Shown: one piece after another, positions 3,397 through 37,335 of the stretch
Layout of the letters: each line of letters starts with the position of its first letter
How positions within the stretch are numbered: position 1 is the first letter of the stretch
DNA from: Parcubacteria group bacterium Gr01-1014_8
Lineage (GTDB): Bacteria > Patescibacteriota > Minisyncoccia > Phycocordibacterales > UBA2100
Direction of reading: 5' to 3'
NCBI GenBank assembly: GCA_007376385.1
Contig: VMGC01000003.1
Coordinates: 37,271-101,270 of the forward strand
Length of the DNA stretch: 64,000 nt
Program-made: the position numbers and the translations under genes
The notes under the pieces: generated by a model
The model's database searches: none
The model's input: the letters and a program-made list of their open reading frames with translations, nothing else
What the model was told of the DNA's origin: nothing

Positions 3397-4638
3397 ATGG
3401 CTGTCGTAAATCCGTTCACGTCATATATTGAACGCCTCGCACGCGCTGCGCGCGCCTTGGGACTCTCGGAAGTCGAAAAAAAACGATTGTCAGAGCCAAA
3501 CAACATTGTAGATACTCAGATAGAACTTACGCGTGATAATGGAACAGTAGAAAGACTCCGCACCTACCGCGTACAATTCAATAATGCACGCGGGCCGTAT
3601 AAAGGCGGGATCCGCTTTCACAAGGCGGCGGACTTAGACGAAGTAAAGGCGCTGGCTGCGGCCATGGCAATAAAGTGTGCGGTAGTTGATATTCCGATGG
3701 GAGGCGCTAAAGGAGGTGTCCAATTTGACCCAAAGCAATATTCAGAAGCGGAAATAGAGCGAGTCGCACGAGCATTCATCCGAGCTATGGGTGATGCAAT
3801 CGGCGCCGACAAAGATATTCCCGCGCCAGACGTATACACCAACAGCAACATAATGGGCATCATGCTGGATGAGTTTCAAAAAATGCACGGCCGAAATGAA
3901 CCCGCCATGATAACGGGAAAGCCGCAGGGACTCGGCGGAATAGTCGGTCGTGACACAGCTACAGCACAAGGCGGTGTGTATGTGCTCGATTACTTTGTGA
4001 GTGCTCTTGGTTTCAAGAAAAAAGGTCTGCGCGTCGCAATACAAGGGTTTGGGAATGCGGGGGCTACCGCTGCAAAGATCTTGAGCGGAGATGGACACAG
4101 TATCGTCGGCATTTCCGATAGCAGCGGAGCTCTCCTATTCGAAACTGGGCTGGACATAGACAAACTCCTTCTTGAAAAAAACAAAAGCGGCGAGTTAAAA
4201 GATACGCGTGCAAGAATCGCAACAAATCAGGAGCTATTAGAAACGGACTGTGATGTTTTGATACCTGCCGCACTCGACAATCAACTGACCGTTGAAAATG
4301 CGCCTCGGGTAAAAGCAAAAATAATACTGGAATTGGCCAACGGGCCAACTACTCCGGAGGCGGACGTGATTTTCGGGCAACGAGACATTACTGTCATCCC
4401 CGATGTACTAACTAACGCGGGGGGAGTTACCGTATCCTATTTTGAATGGCTGCAAAATCGGGAAGGAAGCATCTGGTCGGAAGAAAAAGTACGCGAGCAA
4501 TTGAAAGAAATAATGACAAAAGCATCCGGCGTTCTATGGAAAAAATCAAAGGAACTGAATGTCCCCCTCCGAGATGCGGCGTTCCTTCTTGGCGTTGAAC
4601 GAATTGTGAGTGCTATGAGGACCCGGAGGGCTGTCTAA
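3397..4638 (+). CDS. gdhA: glutamate dehydrogenase (Glu/Leu/Phe/Val dehydrogenase family)
   Basis: Catalytic lysine box DIPMGGAKGGVQFDP, Rossmann motif GFGNAGATAA, 413 aa. Confidence 0.9.
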   Translation: MAVVNPFTSYIERLARAARALGLSEVEKKRLSEPNNIVDTQIELTRDNGTVERLRTYRVQFNNARGPYKGGIRFHKAADLDEVKALAAAMAIKCAVVDIPMGGAKGGVQFDPKQYSEAEIERVARAFIRAMGDAIGADKDIPAPDVYTNSNIMGIMLDEFQKMHGRNEPAMITGKPQGLGGIVGRDTATAQGGVYVLDYFVSALGFKKKGLRVAIQGFGNAGATAAKILSGDGHSIVGISDSSGALLFETGLDIDKLLLEKNKSGELKDTRARIATNQELLETDCDVLIPAALDNQLTVENAPRVKAKIILELANGPTTPEADVIFGQRDITVIPDVLTNAGGVTVSYFEWLQNREGSIWSEEKVREQLKEIMTKASGVLWKKSKELNVPLRDAAFLLGVERIVSAMRTRRAV

Positions 4639-4639
4639 C

Positions 4640-4657
4640 GCGCGAGTGAAGGGACTT
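4640..4657. repeat. 18-bp copy of the tRNA-Asp 3' end (T-stem 3' strand plus acceptor 3' strand)
   Basis: GCGCGAGTGAAGGGACTT here versus GCGCGGAGTGAAGGGACTT at 4796-4815 inside the tRNA-Asp gene. Confidence 0.5.
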
Positions 4658-4760
4658 TTTCTCCCCCGCTTTGCATTTGCAAAGCTCCTCCGAAACCGGC
4701 CGCCCTCGCTCGAACCAGTGGCGCTCGGGTCGGCTTCAAGTCCCGTTTTGCATAGCAAAA

Positions 4761-4787
4761 CAAAAGAGTCCCATAGTGGGACTCTTT
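4761..4787. terminator. bidirectional intrinsic terminator hairpin (AAAAGAGTCCCA-TAG-TGGGACTCTTTT)
   Basis: Perfect 12-bp stem with A/T runs on both sides, immediately 3' of tRNA-Asp. Confidence 0.55.
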
Positions 4788-4796
4788 TGTCTCGCT

Positions 4797-4871
4797 GCGC
4801 GAGTGAAGGGACTTGAACCCTCGACCTTTCCCGTGACAGGGGAACGCTCTAACCAGCTGAGCTACACCCGC
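4797..4871 (-). tRNA. tRNA-Asp (anticodon GUC)
   Basis: Acceptor GCGGGTG, D-arm GCTCAGCTGGTTAGAGC, anticodon loop CTGTCAC, T-arm GAGGG-TTCAAGT-CCCTT. The acceptor 3' strand CACTCCGC has one extra C (a bulge) compared with the remnant copy at 4640-4657. Confidence 0.7.
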
Positions 4872-4959
4872 AAGTGAGGAACAAAGAGATGCGTGCACGC
4901 TCTTTTTCCGGACGCCGCGGGTGCATCCTAAACACATCCCGCAAGGCCCGTACAATATA

Positions 4960-5223
4960 TCACTTACGCCTCTTTTTCAAACCTTTATGACCTAAGAGAT
5001 ATTTAACGACATCGATACCCGAAACAGCGGCCCACACGCTATTTGTGAGCATGAACGGAACTACTCCTTGATCATACGCGTAGACGAAAAGACCTACCCC
5101 ACTCACAAAATTGATGAAGTCATACCAAAAACTTTCCGCCTTAAGTTTGCCGTACTCGTTGGCGATAAACGCGGAAAGAGTAAGGAGGGCAGATGCAATG
5201 CCCAGGATTTCTATGCTACTCAC
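4960..5223 (-). CDS. small integral membrane protein (hypothetical, GTG start with AAGG SD)
   Basis: 87 aa with two TM segments and a K/R-rich tail. It starts about 20 nt downstream of tRNA-Met. Confidence 0.5.
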   Translation of the reverse strand: MSSIEILGIASALLTLSAFIANEYGKLKAESFWYDFINFVSGVGLFVYAYDQGVVPFMLTNSVWAAVSGIDVVKYLLGHKGLKKRRK

Positions 5224-5373: not shown

Positions 5374-5520
5374 CTTGGTCAGGAATAATTCGCTTGCCGA
5401 CGCAAGCGAATTTTCACGACCCTGGCTCGCAGTCTCGCGCGCGCTCGACATCGCTCCGCCTTGCAAGTCCCGACGAGAAGTGCGAAGGCACTTCTCTCCC
5501 CCGCACAACCCGATCACAGC

Positions 5521-5548
5521 AAAAAATCCGCGCGAGGCGGATTTTTTG
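5521..5548. terminator. bidirectional intrinsic terminator (AAAAAATCCGC-GCGAG-GCGGATTTTTT)
   Basis: Perfect GC-rich stem flanked by A6 and T6, directly 3' of tRNA-fMet. Confidence 0.6.
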
Positions 5549-5556
5549 CTGTACTT

Positions 5557-5629
5557 GTTGCGGGGGCGGGACTTGCACCCGCGACCTTCAGGTTATGAGC
5601 CTGACGAGCTACTACTGCTCCACCCCGCT
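5557..5629 (-). tRNA. initiator tRNA-fMet (anticodon CAU)
   Basis: Near-identical architecture to E. coli tRNAfMet (AGCGGGGTGGAGCAG...CTCATAA...CCCCCGCAAC) with an unpaired 1:72 (A:A). Confidence 0.8.
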
Positions 5630-6525: not shown

Positions 6526-7941
6526 CTACCGCGTTTGTTCAATATCCTTGCCGATTGTAAACAACATCTCTTCCCCACCATGCGAACCAATGGCTTGAAA
6601 GCCTACTGGGAGCTCTTTCCCATCGCGAGTGACAGTACCCGCGGGCACAGATATCGCAGGAACGCCTGCAAGATTTACAGGTACGGTGAAAATATCTGCC
6701 GCGTACATAGCGAGAGGATCGTCCGATTTTTCTCCGATCTTAAACGCGGGAATTGGCGATGTGGGTGTTGCAACAGCATCAACCGATTCAAATGCTTTTT
6801 TAAAATCCTCACGGACGAGGGAGCGAACAGCACGAGCCTTACGATAGTACGCGTCAGCGTAACCCGATGAGAGCACAAATGTTCCTACTAAGATCCGGCG
6901 CCTGGCTTCGGGACCGAATCCACGTCCTCGCGTTTTTGTGTATACATCTCCTATTGTTTCTGCGGGTTCAGAAAGACCATAACGTATACCGTCAAAGCGC
7001 GCCAGATTCGTAGACACTTCGGCCGGATTAATAATGTAGTACACAGCAAGAGAGTATGTGAGATTCGGCAATTCGATGTCTCGGATCTCATACCCTGCTT
7101 TCCGCAAATTATTGAGCACACTCTCGAACCGCAAAGATACATCTTTTTCCACTCCACTTGAGACGAACGCGCGAGGTACCCCTATCACCTTCGGCTTTTT
7201 TACGTACACAGCTGTATCCGGAAGCGACGTACTGTCGTTAGTATCGTGCCCTCGTATCGCGTTAAACACAGCCTCAACATCGCCGACTGTTTTGCCGATG
7301 GGGCCGATCTGATCAAGAGATGACGCAGCTGCCATTAATCCGAAGCGCGACACTGCACCGTACGTTGGTTTCAAACCGACAACACCGCAAAGAGCCGCGG
7401 GCTGGCGAATTGAGCCGCCAGTGTCACTTCCGAGACCGACCAGAGCCATATTCGCCGCAACCGCCGCCGCAGGTCCTCCCGACGTCCCGCCAGCAACACG
7501 CGATGTATCGTACGGATTCTTGGTTACGCCATACGCTGAATTTTCCGTCGAGGAGCCAAGAGCAAATTCATCCATATTTGCTCGTCCCAAAAATACCGCT
7601 CCCTCATTTTTTAGCTTTGTTGTTACGGTTGCATCATACGAAGCTACATAGCTCTCCAATATCTTGGAGGCAGCGCTCGCATGTCGCCCTTTTATTAAAA
7701 TATTGTCTTTTATCGCAACAGGAATTCCAGTAAGAGATAATGCATTGCCTTCTCGTATGCGTTCGTCCGCTTCTTGTGCTTCAGCGAGCGCTGTTTCCGC
7801 CCATACTTCTAAATACGCATGAATATCAGGGTCGCGCAGGGCTATCTCTTTTAAATAGGCTTCGGTTAGTTCTCTCGCTGAAAATTTCTTGGCATCGAGT
7901 GCGCGTCTGGCCTCCATAACCGTAAGTGCTGATAGTTCCAT
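6526..7941 (-). CDS. gatA: Glu-tRNA(Gln)/Asp-tRNA(Asn) amidotransferase subunit A
   Basis: Amidase signature GGTSGGPAAAVAA, 471 aa, followed by gatC. Confidence 0.9.
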   Translation of the reverse strand: MELSALTVMEARRALDAKKFSARELTEAYLKEIALRDPDIHAYLEVWAETALAEAQEADERIREGNALSLTGIPVAIKDNILIKGRHASAASKILESYVASYDATVTTKLKNEGAVFLGRANMDEFALGSSTENSAYGVTKNPYDTSRVAGGTSGGPAAAVAANMALVGLGSDTGGSIRQPAALCGVVGLKPTYGAVSRFGLMAAASSLDQIGPIGKTVGDVEAVFNAIRGHDTNDSTSLPDTAVYVKKPKVIGVPRAFVSSGVEKDVSLRFESVLNNLRKAGYEIRDIELPNLTYSLAVYYIINPAEVSTNLARFDGIRYGLSEPAETIGDVYTKTRGRGFGPEARRRILVGTFVLSSGYADAYYRKARAVRSLVREDFKKAFESVDAVATPTSPIPAFKIGEKSDDPLAMYAADIFTVPVNLAGVPAISVPAGTVTRDGKELPVGFQAIGSHGGEEMLFTIGKDIEQTR

Positions 7942-7943
7942 AC

Positions 7944-10264
<2,321 letters not shown>

Positions 10265-22816: not shown

Positions 22817-23143
22817 CTATTCAATACCATCTATCTTAGCAGCAAGAATGAAGTCGTTTTCTGATAGTCCATGCATCGAATGTGTCGAGAGTTCCACCCC
22901 AACCCCACCCCACTTCAAGACAATGTCCGGATGATGACCTTCGGCTTCTGCAATTTCGCCAATTTTGTTCACAAACGCGAGTGCTTCCTTAAAATCCTTC
23001 AGCTTAAAGGAGCGGGACATCTTTTTTGCGTCATCCGACAGCCGCCACTCTGGAGTTTGTTTCCTCAGTGTCTCTGCCTCATCTCGCGTCAGCGGTACAG
23101 CGCCCACCTCGCATGGTATGCATTTTTTCTGCAGCAACGTCAT
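22817..23143 (-). CDS. phhB: pterin-4a-carbinolamine dehydratase (ORF track runs to 23236)
   Basis: EGHHPD catalytic motif and about 100-aa PCD fold. Confidence 0.8.
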   Translation of the reverse strand: MTLLQKKCIPCEVGAVPLTRDEAETLRKQTPEWRLSDDAKKMSRSFKLKDFKEALAFVNKIGEIAEAEGHHPDIVLKWGGVGVELSTHSMHGLSENDFILAAKIDGIE

Positions 23144-23157
23144 GACACAATAGTAGC

Positions 23158-23802
23158 ATGATGCGTTTTTTTCGAGCCATATTTGATGCGATTCTCCCGC
23201 AAAAAGCACGGGTCGCACGAACACAGACCTACACATTGAAAGATTTGGAGCTTTCGCCTACGACTCACGAAGCATACGGAGTACAGATAACAACGCTGAT
23301 GTCATATCGAACGAAAGCAGTTGAAGATCTCATCCGCGCTTTGAAATATGACGGGGCAAAACACGCATCACATGCCCTCGCAGAAGCACTTGGAGAATAT
23401 CTGCAAGAAGAGATCGCCCACATCAAGCTGTTTTCCTCAAAATCAGTGCTTCTCGTTCCTATATCCCTTCACAGTGAACGTCTTCGAGAACGCGGATTTA
23501 ATCAGATAGAAGTTGTGCTCAATGCATTGCCAGAAGAATTCAAGAACGGGAAGCTCACAACTCTCTCGCCTCGTACGCTCACGCGCATTCGCAACACCCC
23601 ACAACAAACAAGGCTTTCAAGAAATGAACGTCTGAAGAACGTAGAAGGTGCGTTCGCCGTTTCGGACGAAAAGACGCTTCAAGATACGCATGTCATTCTC
23701 ATTGATGATGTAACAACTACCGGAGCAACGCTTTCGAGTGCGGCACAAACACTCAAGAAAACAGGAGTATCATTTTCAATGATTGCTCTCGCACGAGCAT
23801 AA
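23158..23802 (+). CDS. comFC: ComF family protein (phosphoribosyltransferase domain)
   Basis: C-terminal PRTase motif VILIDDVTTTGATL. The length of 214 aa is typical of ComFC. Confidence 0.75.
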   Translation: MMRFFRAIFDAILPQKARVARTQTYTLKDLELSPTTHEAYGVQITTLMSYRTKAVEDLIRALKYDGAKHASHALAEALGEYLQEEIAHIKLFSSKSVLLVPISLHSERLRERGFNQIEVVLNALPEEFKNGKLTTLSPRTLTRIRNTPQQTRLSRNERLKNVEGAFAVSDEKTLQDTHVILIDDVTTTGATLSSAAQTLKKTGVSFSMIALARA

Positions 23803-23913: not shown

Positions 23914-24504
23914 TTATTCGAGTGACACACCTATATCGCCATCAAACTGGCCCTGCTTTACGTTGATACTGTTTGCCTTGATGAAATTTCTGTAGACAAG
24001 TTTGCCAGCAATATCTAACTTATGGAATATCTCCATATAATTCCAGAATATGCCTTTGCTATATTTCGAATACTGTTTTTGATGAAGAGTCTCATTTGCT
24101 GCTTTATCTTTTTTAATGTCGCCCCATAAAGTCGTAATCGCATTTTGAACATCGCTTGCAAAAGATGGCACGTAGATAAGAAGTCCCTGATTAAAGAAAC
24201 CTAAATGTTCGCTCTGTGCAGACGGGTCCGCAGTAGGAACAACTGCGCCCTTTGCGACATAGCTATGCGATACTCCGTTTCGAAACAACTCATAAATCAA
24301 TTCTGCAATTGGATGATATTGAGGCGGCATGTACACACTCTTGCAAAAGGCAACAAAGTTATTCTTGGTAGTACCGGGCCCGGTTTTTCCTGTTATGAAA
24401 CTCCCACACATTTCCATGGCGGTAAATACCGCACTTGCCCACAGGAGGGTGCCTTTTTCATTTGGGCCGATAGAGTTTACTAAGTCCTCGAAAAAGATTG
24501 CCAT
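23914..24504 (-). CDS. hypothetical protein with HEPN-type Rx4HxY motif
   Basis: LFRNGVSHSY matches the Rx4HxY motif of HepT/Abi-type HEPN RNases. No other recognisable domain. 196 aa. Confidence 0.4.
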   Translation of the reverse strand: MAIFFEDLVNSIGPNEKGTLLWASAVFTAMEMCGSFITGKTGPGTTKNNFVAFCKSVYMPPQYHPIAELIYELFRNGVSHSYVAKGAVVPTADPSAQSEHLGFFNQGLLIYVPSFASDVQNAITTLWGDIKKDKAANETLHQKQYSKYSKGIFWNYMEIFHKLDIAGKLVYRNFIKANSINVKQGQFDGDIGVSLE

Positions 24505-24722
24505 ATTGAAAATTGTAGCTCCGACTGTGCTCTTCGGGTACTCGGGTCAGTCCGATAAAAAAGTCTTCGGGCGGTGAGATATTAGTCTTTGCTCGAACCC
24601 ACTTCGCACGCGCGGAGCGCGTGGTGGCTTGAAACTGAAGCGTACGCCCCGATTCCGCTGACTCTCGCCTCTGCCGCGCCGCTTTGCGGCGCGGCTCTGT
24701 CCGAACTCGAAGTTTCTATCTG

Positions 24723-24811
24723 CGGAGAGGGAGGGATTCGAACCCTCGAGACAGTTTTACCCGCCTAACACGTTAGCACCGTGCCGCCTTCGACCACTCG
24801 GCCACCTCTCC
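24723..24811 (-). tRNA. tRNA-Ser (anticodon GCU), long variable arm
   Basis: Acceptor GGAGAGG/CCTCTCC, anticodon loop with GCT, a roughly 17-nt variable arm, T-arm GAGGG-TTCGAAT-CCCTC. Confidence 0.85.
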
Positions 24812-25000
24812 CTCGATTCGCTTACGCGAATCATATCGGAAGGAGGCCTCGCCCTTCGGGCTCCCTAAAGCCTGCTCGGCACTTGCCTCGCATTGGCTTT
24901 TTCCGCATTCGCGGAATCGGATGAAATAGACGCCAGGTCATATTTCATGGCCACCTCTCCAACCGCACTACCCTATCATAGAACAATAGGGTTTTCTAAA

Positions 25001-25354
25001 TCACAAAACTTTGTGTATCAACCAAGAGAGAAGCGACAGAACGATGGCACCCAATACCGCACTCCAGAAACCTGCGATAGAAAATCCTGGCACTATCCAC
25101 GTCATTGCATAAAAAAGAAATGCGTTCAAAACAAAAGCAAACAGTCCGAATGTGATGAGAGTGATCGGGAATGTAAGGATCTGCAGAACGGGACGAATAA
25201 CGGTTACAATGACTGACCATACGAGTGCGACTAAAAGAACTGTCGTCCATCCGCCTGCAATTGTTATGCCTGGGACAATGTTGACGGTTAATAGCACCGC
25301 CGCGACGTTCCCTGCATATTTCAAGAGAAAGTGCATGCGTTCATGATACGACAT
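25001..25354 (-). CDS. DUF360 / phage-holin-4-2 family membrane protein
   Basis: 117 aa with four TM helices. The pattern VPG..I.G.W.A.L.A.V...L...IRP...L..P resembles the YvlD/holin superfamily IV. Confidence 0.55.
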   Translation of the reverse strand: MSYHERMHFLLKYAGNVAAVLLTVNIVPGITIAGGWTTVLLVALVWSVIVTVIRPVLQILTFPITLITFGLFAFVLNAFLFYAMTWIVPGFSIAGFWSAVLGAIVLSLLSWLIHKVL

Positions 25355-25715
25355 AAAGCACTCCCAGGCAAAACACCCGCCAGCTTTCGGCTGATGGGTG
25401 TCTTTTAGTTCCGAATTTCAGCGCTACTCCTGTTCTTCCTCTGCCATGCCTTCCAACAGGTCTTCATCCAGCTCTTCACTTTCCTCGGCTGGTTCATTCC
25501 CCTCATCATCGTTAGACATCATCATAGATATGCAACGCTATCCTGATAACGAGCATTCGCTCGATATCGTGTCTTCGCGGGGATGACAATGAAAGCAAGC
25601 TTTCGCTTCGCATCCTCGCTAGCCACGATAACACCGCTATCGTACCGATACCTACCCCGCGTGCAAGCGATAGGGGTGTGAATAACTTTTGGGGAGCATA
25701 TAATTCCTCTACCTC

Positions 25716-29666: not shown

Positions 29667-29912
29667 AACAATCCGCCCACAAGGACACTTTGGAAACACC
29701 ACAAGAGTACTTCAGAAAATATACTCGTGCCACTCGTTATTTTCTTGGTCACACCTCAAGGGTACTTCCATTTTTCTAAGCCGGAGTACCGGCAAGAAAA
29801 ATTGGTCGCCCACGGTTTTCCAACGGGCTTCGCCCTGCCTTCCTCCACGGGAAACAAAGTGTTTCCCCGACCCCCTTCCTGTCCAAGCGGGCGTCCATTC
29901 ATTTCATTCATG

Positions 29913-29986
29913 TCCGCCCGCTTGGACTCGAACCAAGGACCCTCGAGGTATAAGCTCGATGCTCTAACCAACTGAGCTACGGGCGG
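29913..29986 (-). tRNA. tRNA-Ile (anticodon UAU, reads AUA)
   Basis: Acceptor CCGCCCG/CGGGCGG, anticodon stem ATCGA/TCGAG, loop CTTATAC (anticodon TAT), T-arm CTTGG-TTCGAGT-CCAAG. Confidence 0.65.
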
Positions 29987-36889: not shown

Positions 36890-37277
36890 GGGGGTGACTG
36901 GTTTCGACAGGAAATTCAATGTGCTTGTGTGCAAGACGGAAGTGAGAACCTTCCTAAAAAATCTCAAACTCTAAGTGCAAACAAAACTGCACGGGGGGTT
37001 CTTTCGCCGATTCAGGCGAAAGACCTCGGCCTCGTTTTCGCTTAATCGCCCAAACGACCGTTCGTTCAGCGGGTACTCGATACCGTTGACGCGAGCGTCA
37101 TAACCATCGAGTCCGGTTTCTATTTCACTCCGAGTAGAGACTTAAAGAAAGAGAGTTAGCCGACGTATGCTTTCGTTCATCTTCTACATACATCGGCGAA
37201 TCTTCAAGATGAACTACGTCTTGTAGACGCGCCTGTGCATCATTTCTTGGACTCGAGTTCAATTCTCGACACCTCCA
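36890..37277 (+). ncRNA. ssrA: tmRNA (one-piece SsrA); tag ORF 36977-37045 encodes ANKTARGVLSPIQAKDLGLVFA
   Basis: 5' end GGGGGTGACTGGTTTCGACAGG, tRNA-like T-arm TCGAG-TTCAATT-CTCGA, 3' acceptor CACCTCCA pairing with the 5' end including the G3:U70 Ala identity pair. Resume codon GCA in an AAAAAATCTCAAACTCTAAGT|GCAAAC context like E. coli. Confidence 0.8.
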
Positions 37278-37335
37278 CTCGATTCGCCTCTCGCTAACGC
37301 TTGAGGCTCGCTCGTGGCAAGCCACCAGTCAATAC

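Follow-up and report, generated by a model that had tools for sequence, protein, structure and literature searches.

A member of an unannotated HEPN-like protein family lodged in a variable slot beside tRNA-Ser in a parcubacterial genome

The genome of Parcubacteria group bacterium Gr01-1014_8 holds, in close succession, a 196-amino-acid (aa) open reading frame (ORF), a tRNA-Ser(GCU) gene, a gene for a DUF360 membrane protein and a 33-aa acidic micro-ORF. The question raised by this locus is whether the four form one system dropped at a tRNA gene, or whether only a part of the region is foreign to the place where it stands. Our analysis covered 64 kb of this genome (the window) and a set of contigs with homologues or relatives of its genes, numbered here as loci (L001, L041 and so on), which were compared with the window. 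The region is a composite of a conserved backbone and one cargo gene, not a module: only the 196-aa gene is lineage-specific, and in relatives the slot that it fills holds other cargo. As to what this gene encodes, we lean, by a narrow preference, towards an HEPN-superfamily RNase that would serve as a stand-alone defence or toxin effector, carried as cargo in an otherwise conserved backbone.

The 196-aa gene (23914-24504, minus strand) is lineage-specific cargo of an unannotated, HEPN-like family. Its product is 100% identical to the hypothetical protein G01um10148_660 of Parcubacteria group bacterium Gr01-1014_8, has no match in Pfam, NCBIfam, PADLOC or PHROGs, and found no match when its single sequence was searched against PDB sequences. 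Among 5.8 billion clustered proteins, close homologues number only three, at 65-74% identity. When 1.84 billion representatives were searched with a profile, 47 clusters of the family came up at E<=1e-3, and a second profile search recovered 53 family proteins, some of them named from Candidatus Daviesbacteria or an actinobacterial metagenome-assembled genome, none of which has a Pfam domain over the family region. A metagenome scan yielded 24 further loci. The family has roughly 80 members.

The sequence-only reading had noticed RNGVSHSY, an instance of the Rx4HxY signature, in this ORF, and the motif is indeed present as F74-R75-N76-G77-V78-S79-H80-S81-Y82, the putatively catalytic stretch R75 to Y82 being encoded at 24259-24282 on the minus strand. 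In an alignment of 83 family sequences the motif is the best-conserved feature. R75 and H80 are each kept in 82 sequences and G77 in 79. At position 76, N predominates (60 sequences), followed by H (12) and C (9), with S and D in one each; at position 82, 62 sequences have Y and 11 have F. Elsewhere in the protein, position 31 is acidic (E or D) in 81 of the 83, and G34, Y63 and D118 are kept in 79, 80 and 79, respectively. Among the four close homologues, the window gene included, pN/pS is 0.21-0.29 with synonymous sites saturated, and the gene is under purifying selection.

With a 4-sequence alignment, AlphaFold gave a predicted local distance difference test score (pLDDT) of 35.6 and no usable model of the protein; with a 45-sequence alignment, pLDDT rose to 88.6 and the predicted template modelling score (pTM) was 0.85. 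The predicted helices span residues 2-11, 19-38, 46-54, 61-78, 112-143 and 152-177, the last two being long, and a beta-hairpin (87-91/107-111) sits between helices 61-78 and 112-143. The Rx4HxY motif is found at the C-terminus of helix 61-78, and HEPN domains are the model's best structural neighbours. In the published definition, the HEPN core is an up-down four-helix bundle that typically has an insert between helices 2 and 3, the Rx4-6H motif is placed at the end of helix 3, the residue following R is usually polar (N, D or H), and helix 2 often has a conserved acidic residue, typically as Ex3[KR] (PMC3710099). The 196-aa protein is predicted to have such an up-down four-helix core, and its family has both the Rx4H at a helix end and the polar residue after R. 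The acidic residue, E/D31, is in helix 19-38; the residue four positions on is S, G or R, so K/R is not consistent there. Because the conservation of the motif, its position in the model and the fit to these descriptions agree, we file the proteins in the HEPN superfamily as a family of their own, and we consider this assignment probable. The superfamily itself is well known; the family was previously unannotated, having no Pfam, NCBIfam, PADLOC or PHROG model. The earlier suggestion of an HEPN protein, made from the motif, is supported by the conservation of that motif, by its position in the model, by the structural neighbours, by the defence contexts of homologues described below and by the gene's absence from close relatives.

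Comparison with known HEPN systems sets the protein apart from each of them. The HepT/DUF86 toxins of HEPN-MNT systems (e.g. SO_3166, PDB 5yep, 7ae2, 8xdj) are adjoined by an MNT antitoxin, whereas no MNT nucleotidyltransferase lies beside the window gene, whose neighbours are tRNA-Ser and ComF, or in the annotated neighbourhoods of its homologues. The 196-aa protein further differs from HepT/DUF86 in its lack of a Pfam match, its beta-hairpin insert after the motif and its ~55 extra C-terminal residues. It has no PF18728 or Abi_2 match, unlike the lactococcal 'single-gene' HEPN proteins AbiV and AbiD/AbiF, and its family keeps the motif H, while AbiV is typically without the canonical H (PMC3710099). 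There is a partial likeness to the anticodon nucleases PrrC and RloC of type I restriction-modification (R-M) loci, since the 48% identical homologue in L046 has hsdM on one side and hsdS on the other, a classic site for RNases guarded by R-M systems, and some homologues follow an ABC-type ATPase gene (L031); unlike PrrC/RloC, the 196-aa protein has no fused ATPase domain, stands solo in the window and shows no sequence similarity to them. It also differs from the CRISPR-associated HEPN RNases Csm6 and Csx1, in that it has no CARF sensor domain and its gene no CRISPR context.

Whether the neighbouring genes belong with this one can be read from the close relatives, for which we took the contigs of the closest DUF360 homologues (L041-L043). 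Their conserved order is PilM, pterin-4a-carbinolamine dehydratase (PCD), ComF, the slot, DUF360, the micro-ORF, RecG and a peptidoglycan-binding protein. Between L041 and the window, identity is 75% for RecG, 82% for PilM, 84% for DUF360, 61% for ComF and 69% for PCD; RecG of L043 is 77% identical to that of the window. The slot holds the HEPN-like gene and tRNA-Ser in the window. In L041, the closest relative, it holds (7328-8429, between ComF and DUF360) a 330-aa gene with helix-turn-helix (HTH) and LAGLIDADG_3-like matches, tRNA-Ser(GCU) and a lysine-rich 288-aa protein with no family match; the tRNA there is in inverted orientation and abutted by the LAGLIDADG_3-like gene. In L043 the slot holds a 361-aa protein of unknown kind, and the HEPN-like gene is absent from L041, L042 and L043 alike. 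More remote RecG homologues (49-58% identity) are too distant for judging what the slot contains; among them, tRNA-Ser(GCU), RecG, tRNA-Ile(UAU) and the tmRNA recur as a backbone. The idea that 23914-25560 as a whole varies among relatives therefore stands for the 196-aa gene and fails for the tRNA, DUF360 and the micro-ORF, which are conserved.

The DUF360 gene (25001-25336, minus strand) was correctly recognised from the sequence as encoding a DUF360/holin-superfamily membrane protein: it matches PF04020 (Phage_holin_4_2) over its full length at E=9.4e-28. The ORF extends to 25354. At E<=1e-10 its homologues fall into 436 clusters. Identity is 68-100% among the 120 listed, of which nearly all have a length of 111 aa and many are named Kaiserbacteria or Paceibacterota. 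Since the homologues have this length, M7, at 25336, is probably the true start, which gives a product of 111 aa. The window protein shares its full-length domain match with the 'mycobacterial 4-TMS phage holin' family, but unlike a phage holin its gene is vertically conserved beside RecG with no lysis cassette or prophage nearby, and its matches to PHROG models are weak. The holin name is a family label only.

The micro-ORF (MMMSNDDEGNEPAEESEELDEDLLEGMAEEEQE) proved to lie at 25424-25525 (minus strand), and not at about 25435-25536 as first given. An acidic micro-ORF stands directly upstream of DUF360 in at least three related genomes too: in L041 (5725-5835) and L042 (5194-5301) as MMTNDDEEKEEGEEGEDAGAGDDLLEGLGDEIEPE, and in L043 (5820-5921) as MMADDGYMDPDEAEGDDLLGMDEGDKEEEEESE. 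These peptides are 33-35 aa long with the pattern MM.NDDE...DDLLEG..., and a tblastn search with the window peptide finds the L041 copy at E=6.7e-7. Most of the differences are at the third position of GAN codons. In the gap between micro-ORF and DUF360, a hairpin followed by a U-tract resembles a terminator (25373-25401, minus strand; -20.4 kcal/mol, z = -3.4), and its counterparts in relatives reach -24 and -26.5 kcal/mol, each sequence having been folded singly. A stable G+C hairpin follows the micro-ORF at the same place in all three genomes, with the U-tract in two of them. The micro-ORF could encode a real micro-protein, or it could act as a leader or attenuator of DUF360. Both DUF360 and the micro-ORF are core genes of the lineage.

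These comparisons bear directly on the proposal that the HEPN-like protein, the acidic peptide and DUF360 make up one abortive-infection or toxin module, an HEPN RNase plus a membrane effector, inserted at tRNA-Ser. The proposal draws on the position of all four elements on one strand within 1.6 kb and on the 'phage holin' name that DUF360 bears in Pfam. Synteny largely refutes it. DUF360 and the micro-ORF stand beside RecG in L041, L042 and L043, all without the HEPN-like gene; DUF360 is among the best-conserved genes here, with more than 100 clusters at 68-86% identity, and a clustering of the neighbours at 33 loci with a family member showed DUF360 at none of the others; and the tRNA gene and the hairpin stand between the supposed partners. 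We reject the module because DUF360 is absent beside the other family members and is a syntenic core gene in relatives that lack the HEPN-like gene, and we regard it as very improbable.

If the 196-aa gene alone is cargo, the next question is whether the tRNA gene guided it there. The tRNA-Ser(GCU) gene (24722-24811, minus strand; ARAGORN, with an Rfam score of 54.7 bits) is a host tRNA that is kept in this neighbourhood, and it also lies upstream of RecG in L004, L005, L006, L007, L009, L013, L015 and L041. It had been described as immediately next to the 196-aa ORF; it is adjacent and on the same strand, 217 nt upstream. The reported repeat of its first 12 nt is also real, with a shift in position and spacing. 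The 12-mer GGCCACCTCTCC occurs only twice in the window, at 24800-24811 and 24949-24960 (not 24945-24956), 137 nt apart (not 134 bp). The second copy was recorded on the plus strand. By chance, a 2.1 kb region would hold about 0.1 exact direct repeats of 12 nt, and this repeat is notable for coinciding exactly with the end of the tRNA. It is the 5' end and not the 3' end, and the two copies bracket 137 nt with no gene; the second is possibly a recombination scar. A search for attachment sites showed that the tRNA 3' end is present only once in the window, and none of the neighbouring window ORFs encodes an integrase.

The content of the tRNA flank varies among relatives (L041, L043, L004, L007 and L015), and throughout the group the flank of tRNA-Ser seems to serve as a site for cargo. 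In L004, whose RecG is 58% identical to that of the window, a gene for a Shedu SduA_C nuclease (E=1.8e-30; 3762-4985, minus strand) lies immediately 3' of the syntenic tRNA-Ser(GCU) at 5469-5562. A NikA-like gene occupies the corresponding position in L015, and genes for TspO and a methylpurine glycosylase do so in L007. In L009, ARAGORN reports at 8522-8755 a divergent pair, 62 nt apart, of tRNA-Ser(GCU) and a 'tRNA-Ser' with the anticodon ACU, the latter of which may be a pseudo-tRNA or a palindromic artefact.

Among the close homologues, the one in L001 (74% identical) has a tRNA-Ser(CGA) ~33 nt upstream on its own strand, and the one in L002 has no upstream tRNA. DNA homology among the four close homologues is limited to the ORF and ~15 upstream bases, and tRNA-targeted insertion of the 196-aa gene is weakly indicated. 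What survives of the tRNA-hotspot idea is the variable slot and the tRNA-Ser upstream of two close homologues; the lack of an integrase and of a second 3' end goes against it. We also considered tRNA linkage as a rule of the family and discarded it, as only 2 of the 24 further loci have a nearby tRNA, namely tRNA-Gln. The L001 homologue carries an anomaly of its own at 8083-8135, where its expected GTG start is one base out of frame, in a T7 run. Because of this the public gene call extends into tRNA-Ser(CGA) and has a spurious N-terminus, VAEWLKALVSKTSG...; either an assembly error or a true frameshift would account for it.

A gene directly downstream of a tRNA invites a further explanation, in which the protein is a type III-like toxin restrained by an upstream RNA, either the 217-nt spacer or the tRNA-Ser transcript. 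The solo lactococcal HEPN Abi proteins AbiV, AbiD, AbiD1 and AbiF are protein-RNA pairs (PMC13064643), and because AbiV, AbiD and AbiF turned out to depend on an antitoxin RNA, we looked for one at the 196-aa gene. The spacer (24505-24721, minus strand) is G+C-rich and has two hairpins, with a perfect 10-bp stem at 24673-24695; it is probably a 3' trailer of the tRNA or a terminator. These hairpins, and the presence of tRNA-Ser directly upstream on the same strand in both the window and L001, speak for the RNA-restrained toxin. Against it, the spacer has an unexceptional fold z of -1.8, is not repeated elsewhere in the window, was not found in loci L001-L040, which were the loci compared, and has no tandem repeats, nor has the flank of the window gene. 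Rfam found only the tRNA. These searches showed no RNA antitoxin of the kind on which AbiV and AbiF rely. The gap between tRNA and ORF in L001 is only ~33 nt, L002 has no upstream tRNA, the 24 more distant loci have no tRNA-Ser, and tRNA-Ser(GCU) is a host gene that is kept in relatives without the HEPN-like gene. We rate this explanation as quite unlikely, though a non-repetitive RNA antitoxin may yet be present.

The gene for the stand-alone effector that we favour appears to be transcribed from a -10 box of its own just upstream of its ATG. The hexamer TACAAT (24512-24517, minus strand) lies 7 nt before the ATG and also precedes the L001 homologue. The pattern is not confined to this gene: counted over 56 window ORFs of >=120 aa with the first in-frame start assumed, which makes the counts rough, TAnnnT ends 4-9 nt before the start in 16 ORFs against a background of 6.2% (p = 2e-7, with a peak at 6-7 nt), and Shine-Dalgarno-like motifs occur in only 4, against a background of 8.6%. 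The pattern suggests that leaderless mRNAs may be widespread in the Gr01-1014_8 genome. Leaderless expression of the 196-aa gene is plausible because its TACAAT fits this pattern and Shine-Dalgarno-like motifs are rare.

The contexts of the homologues bear on function. In L046 the homologue, 48% identical, directly follows an AbiTii gene within a type I R-M operon (hsdM, LexA-like, two small ORFs, AbiTii, HEPN-like, hsdS). In the Daviesbacteria loci L031-L033 the gene sits between an ABC-type ATPase, matched by AriA, PtuA and OLD models, and DUF5677, in an operon flanked by an MvaI/BcnI restriction enzyme, a methyltransferase and two Fic genes; the order in L031 is MvaI/BcnI restriction enzyme, methyltransferase, AriA/PtuA-like ATPase, HEPN-like, DUF5677, Fic. 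Methyltransferases, HTH_17 and a resolvase are among the neighbours in L036, L037, L039 and L040. The clustering of neighbours at the 33 loci gave no general protein partner. DUF5677, which recurs in L037, L039 and L061, is shared by three loci in this clustering with L037 as a fourth by Pfam annotation, and a small GIY-YIG protein is shared by three loci; both are confined to sub-branches. Such a patchy spread, with changing neighbours and now and then a place inside an R-M or Abi operon, is typical of mobile solo defence or toxin genes.

In the distant branch with DUF5677 (PF18928), the linked genes span 1735-5483 in L031, 3647-5423 in L037, 1062-4718 in L039 and 1407-2156 in L061, and the ATPase, HEPN-like protein and DUF5677 of L031 may be an undescribed three-gene defence system. 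DUF5677 is reported to be enriched beside serine recombinases linked to defence; that work put it to the test as one of nine ORFs, and the five said to give protection do not include it (10.1101/2025.10.07.681051). The small GIY-YIG protein lies next to the HEPN-like gene in L059 (250-489), L061 (3714-3956) and L063 (1089-1466); in L063 its gene is directly upstream, and a tRNA-Gln is near in L061 and L063.

Several observations weigh against an HEPN effector acquired for defence. On the structural side, Foldseek searches of the model against PDB and BFVD, one of the checks that had been proposed, returned nothing at E<=0.001; a Pfam hmmscan of 45 family members at E<=1 returned noise only and no HEPN family; and three PDB profile searches (E<=10) found no HEPN chain. 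These results leave some room for an unrelated helical bundle, DinB-like or another four-helix fold, in which RNGxxH would serve ligand or metal binding. Against the motif conservation, the motif's place at a helix end and the HEPN structural neighbours, we consider such a fold improbable.

Characterised HEPN toxins usually have an antitoxin or sensor partner. None is evident here, either among the neighbours at the 33 loci or in the flank of the window gene. PADLOC (PADLOC-DB v2), another of the proposed checks, gave no match for the window protein or for its L031 and L046 homologues. Base composition is equivocal as well. No other 591-nt stretch of the window is as poor in G+C as the 196-aa ORF (41.8% vs 49.6 +/- 2.4%), and we had taken this up as proof of horizontal transfer; it is weakened by an ordinary G+C content at third codon positions (0.43, vs 0.405 for ComF, and unexceptional), and the low G+C owes as much to amino-acid composition as to foreign origin.

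Many homologues, finally, are flanked by housekeeping genes, namely those for CysRS, GluRS, BipA and XseA. Together with the strong purifying selection, a native-looking promoter and the tRNA-Ser upstream of two close homologues, this favours an HEPN-fold housekeeping or otherwise non-defence protein, with a role in RNA processing, nucleotide binding or regulation and possibly a tie to tRNA-Ser metabolism. Such a protein would not be expected to be as patchy as this one, with ~80 clusters in billions of proteins and none in close relatives that have the same backbone; nor is there a conserved neighbour, and several homologues lie inside R-M, Abi or ATPase defence operons. We think a housekeeping role unlikely.

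Returning to the stand-alone effector, the comparisons above show its family membership, motif conservation, fold class and purifying selection, its absence from close relatives and the defence context of some homologues; we infer its RNase activity, RNA target, defence role and inactivation. The gene would be lodged in the variable slot beside the tRNA, within a backbone that runs from ComF through tRNA-Ser(GCU), DUF360 and the acidic micro-ORF to RecG. Its product would be a metal-independent endoribonuclease in which R75 and H80 form the catalytic pair, N76 assists, and the conserved acidic E31 is placed on core helix 2. It may be dimeric and produce 2',3'-cyclic phosphate ends, as other HEPN enzymes do, and its most likely role would be that of an abortive-infection, defence or toxin effector working on its own. 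A bolder version holds that the family is a partnerless minimal HEPN RNase defence gene of the candidate phyla radiation (CPR)/Patescibacteria, and that the subclade of the window is coupled to the upstream tRNA-Ser, which would provide a restraining RNA or trailer or else be the target. This coupling would explain why two diverged homologues lie directly 3' of different tRNA-Ser isoacceptors; we give it only a slim chance.

Parcubacteria and other CPR bacteria have tiny genomes and few recognised immune systems, and they are not yet open to experimental screening. If the biochemical inference is right, an unannotated family is added to the HEPN RNase superfamily and these bacteria gain a candidate single-gene defence or toxin effector. 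The homologues in the R-M/AbiTii operon and beside ATPase and DUF5677 genes suggest new multi-gene systems that defence-finding tools have missed. The DUF360 'phage holin' and the micro-ORF, being core here, do not belong in a tally of defence or lysis cargo.

Some features of the backbone deserve mention in their own right. A tRNA-Ile(UAU) gene, of a kind uncommon in bacteria, lies near RecG in the window (29912-29986) and in L004, L005, L007, L008, L009, L012, L013, L041 and L043, and a tmRNA gene follows a few kb beyond it in the window (36890-37278) and in L004, L005 and L013. The longest ORF for PCD (22817-23236, minus strand) overlaps the start of ComF (23158-23802, plus strand) by 79 nt; because its Pfam match begins at residue 48 and the alignment with its L041 orthologue at residue 34, the true start of PCD is probably downstream of that of the longest ORF. 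Between the micro-ORF and the start of RecG, the window shares with L041 and L043 a block at ~25630-25690 (GTTATTCACA ... CGCTTGC ... GTACGATAGCGGTGTTA, minus strand) in a spacer that has otherwise diverged; a regulatory site or a small RNA ahead of RecG is a possible explanation.

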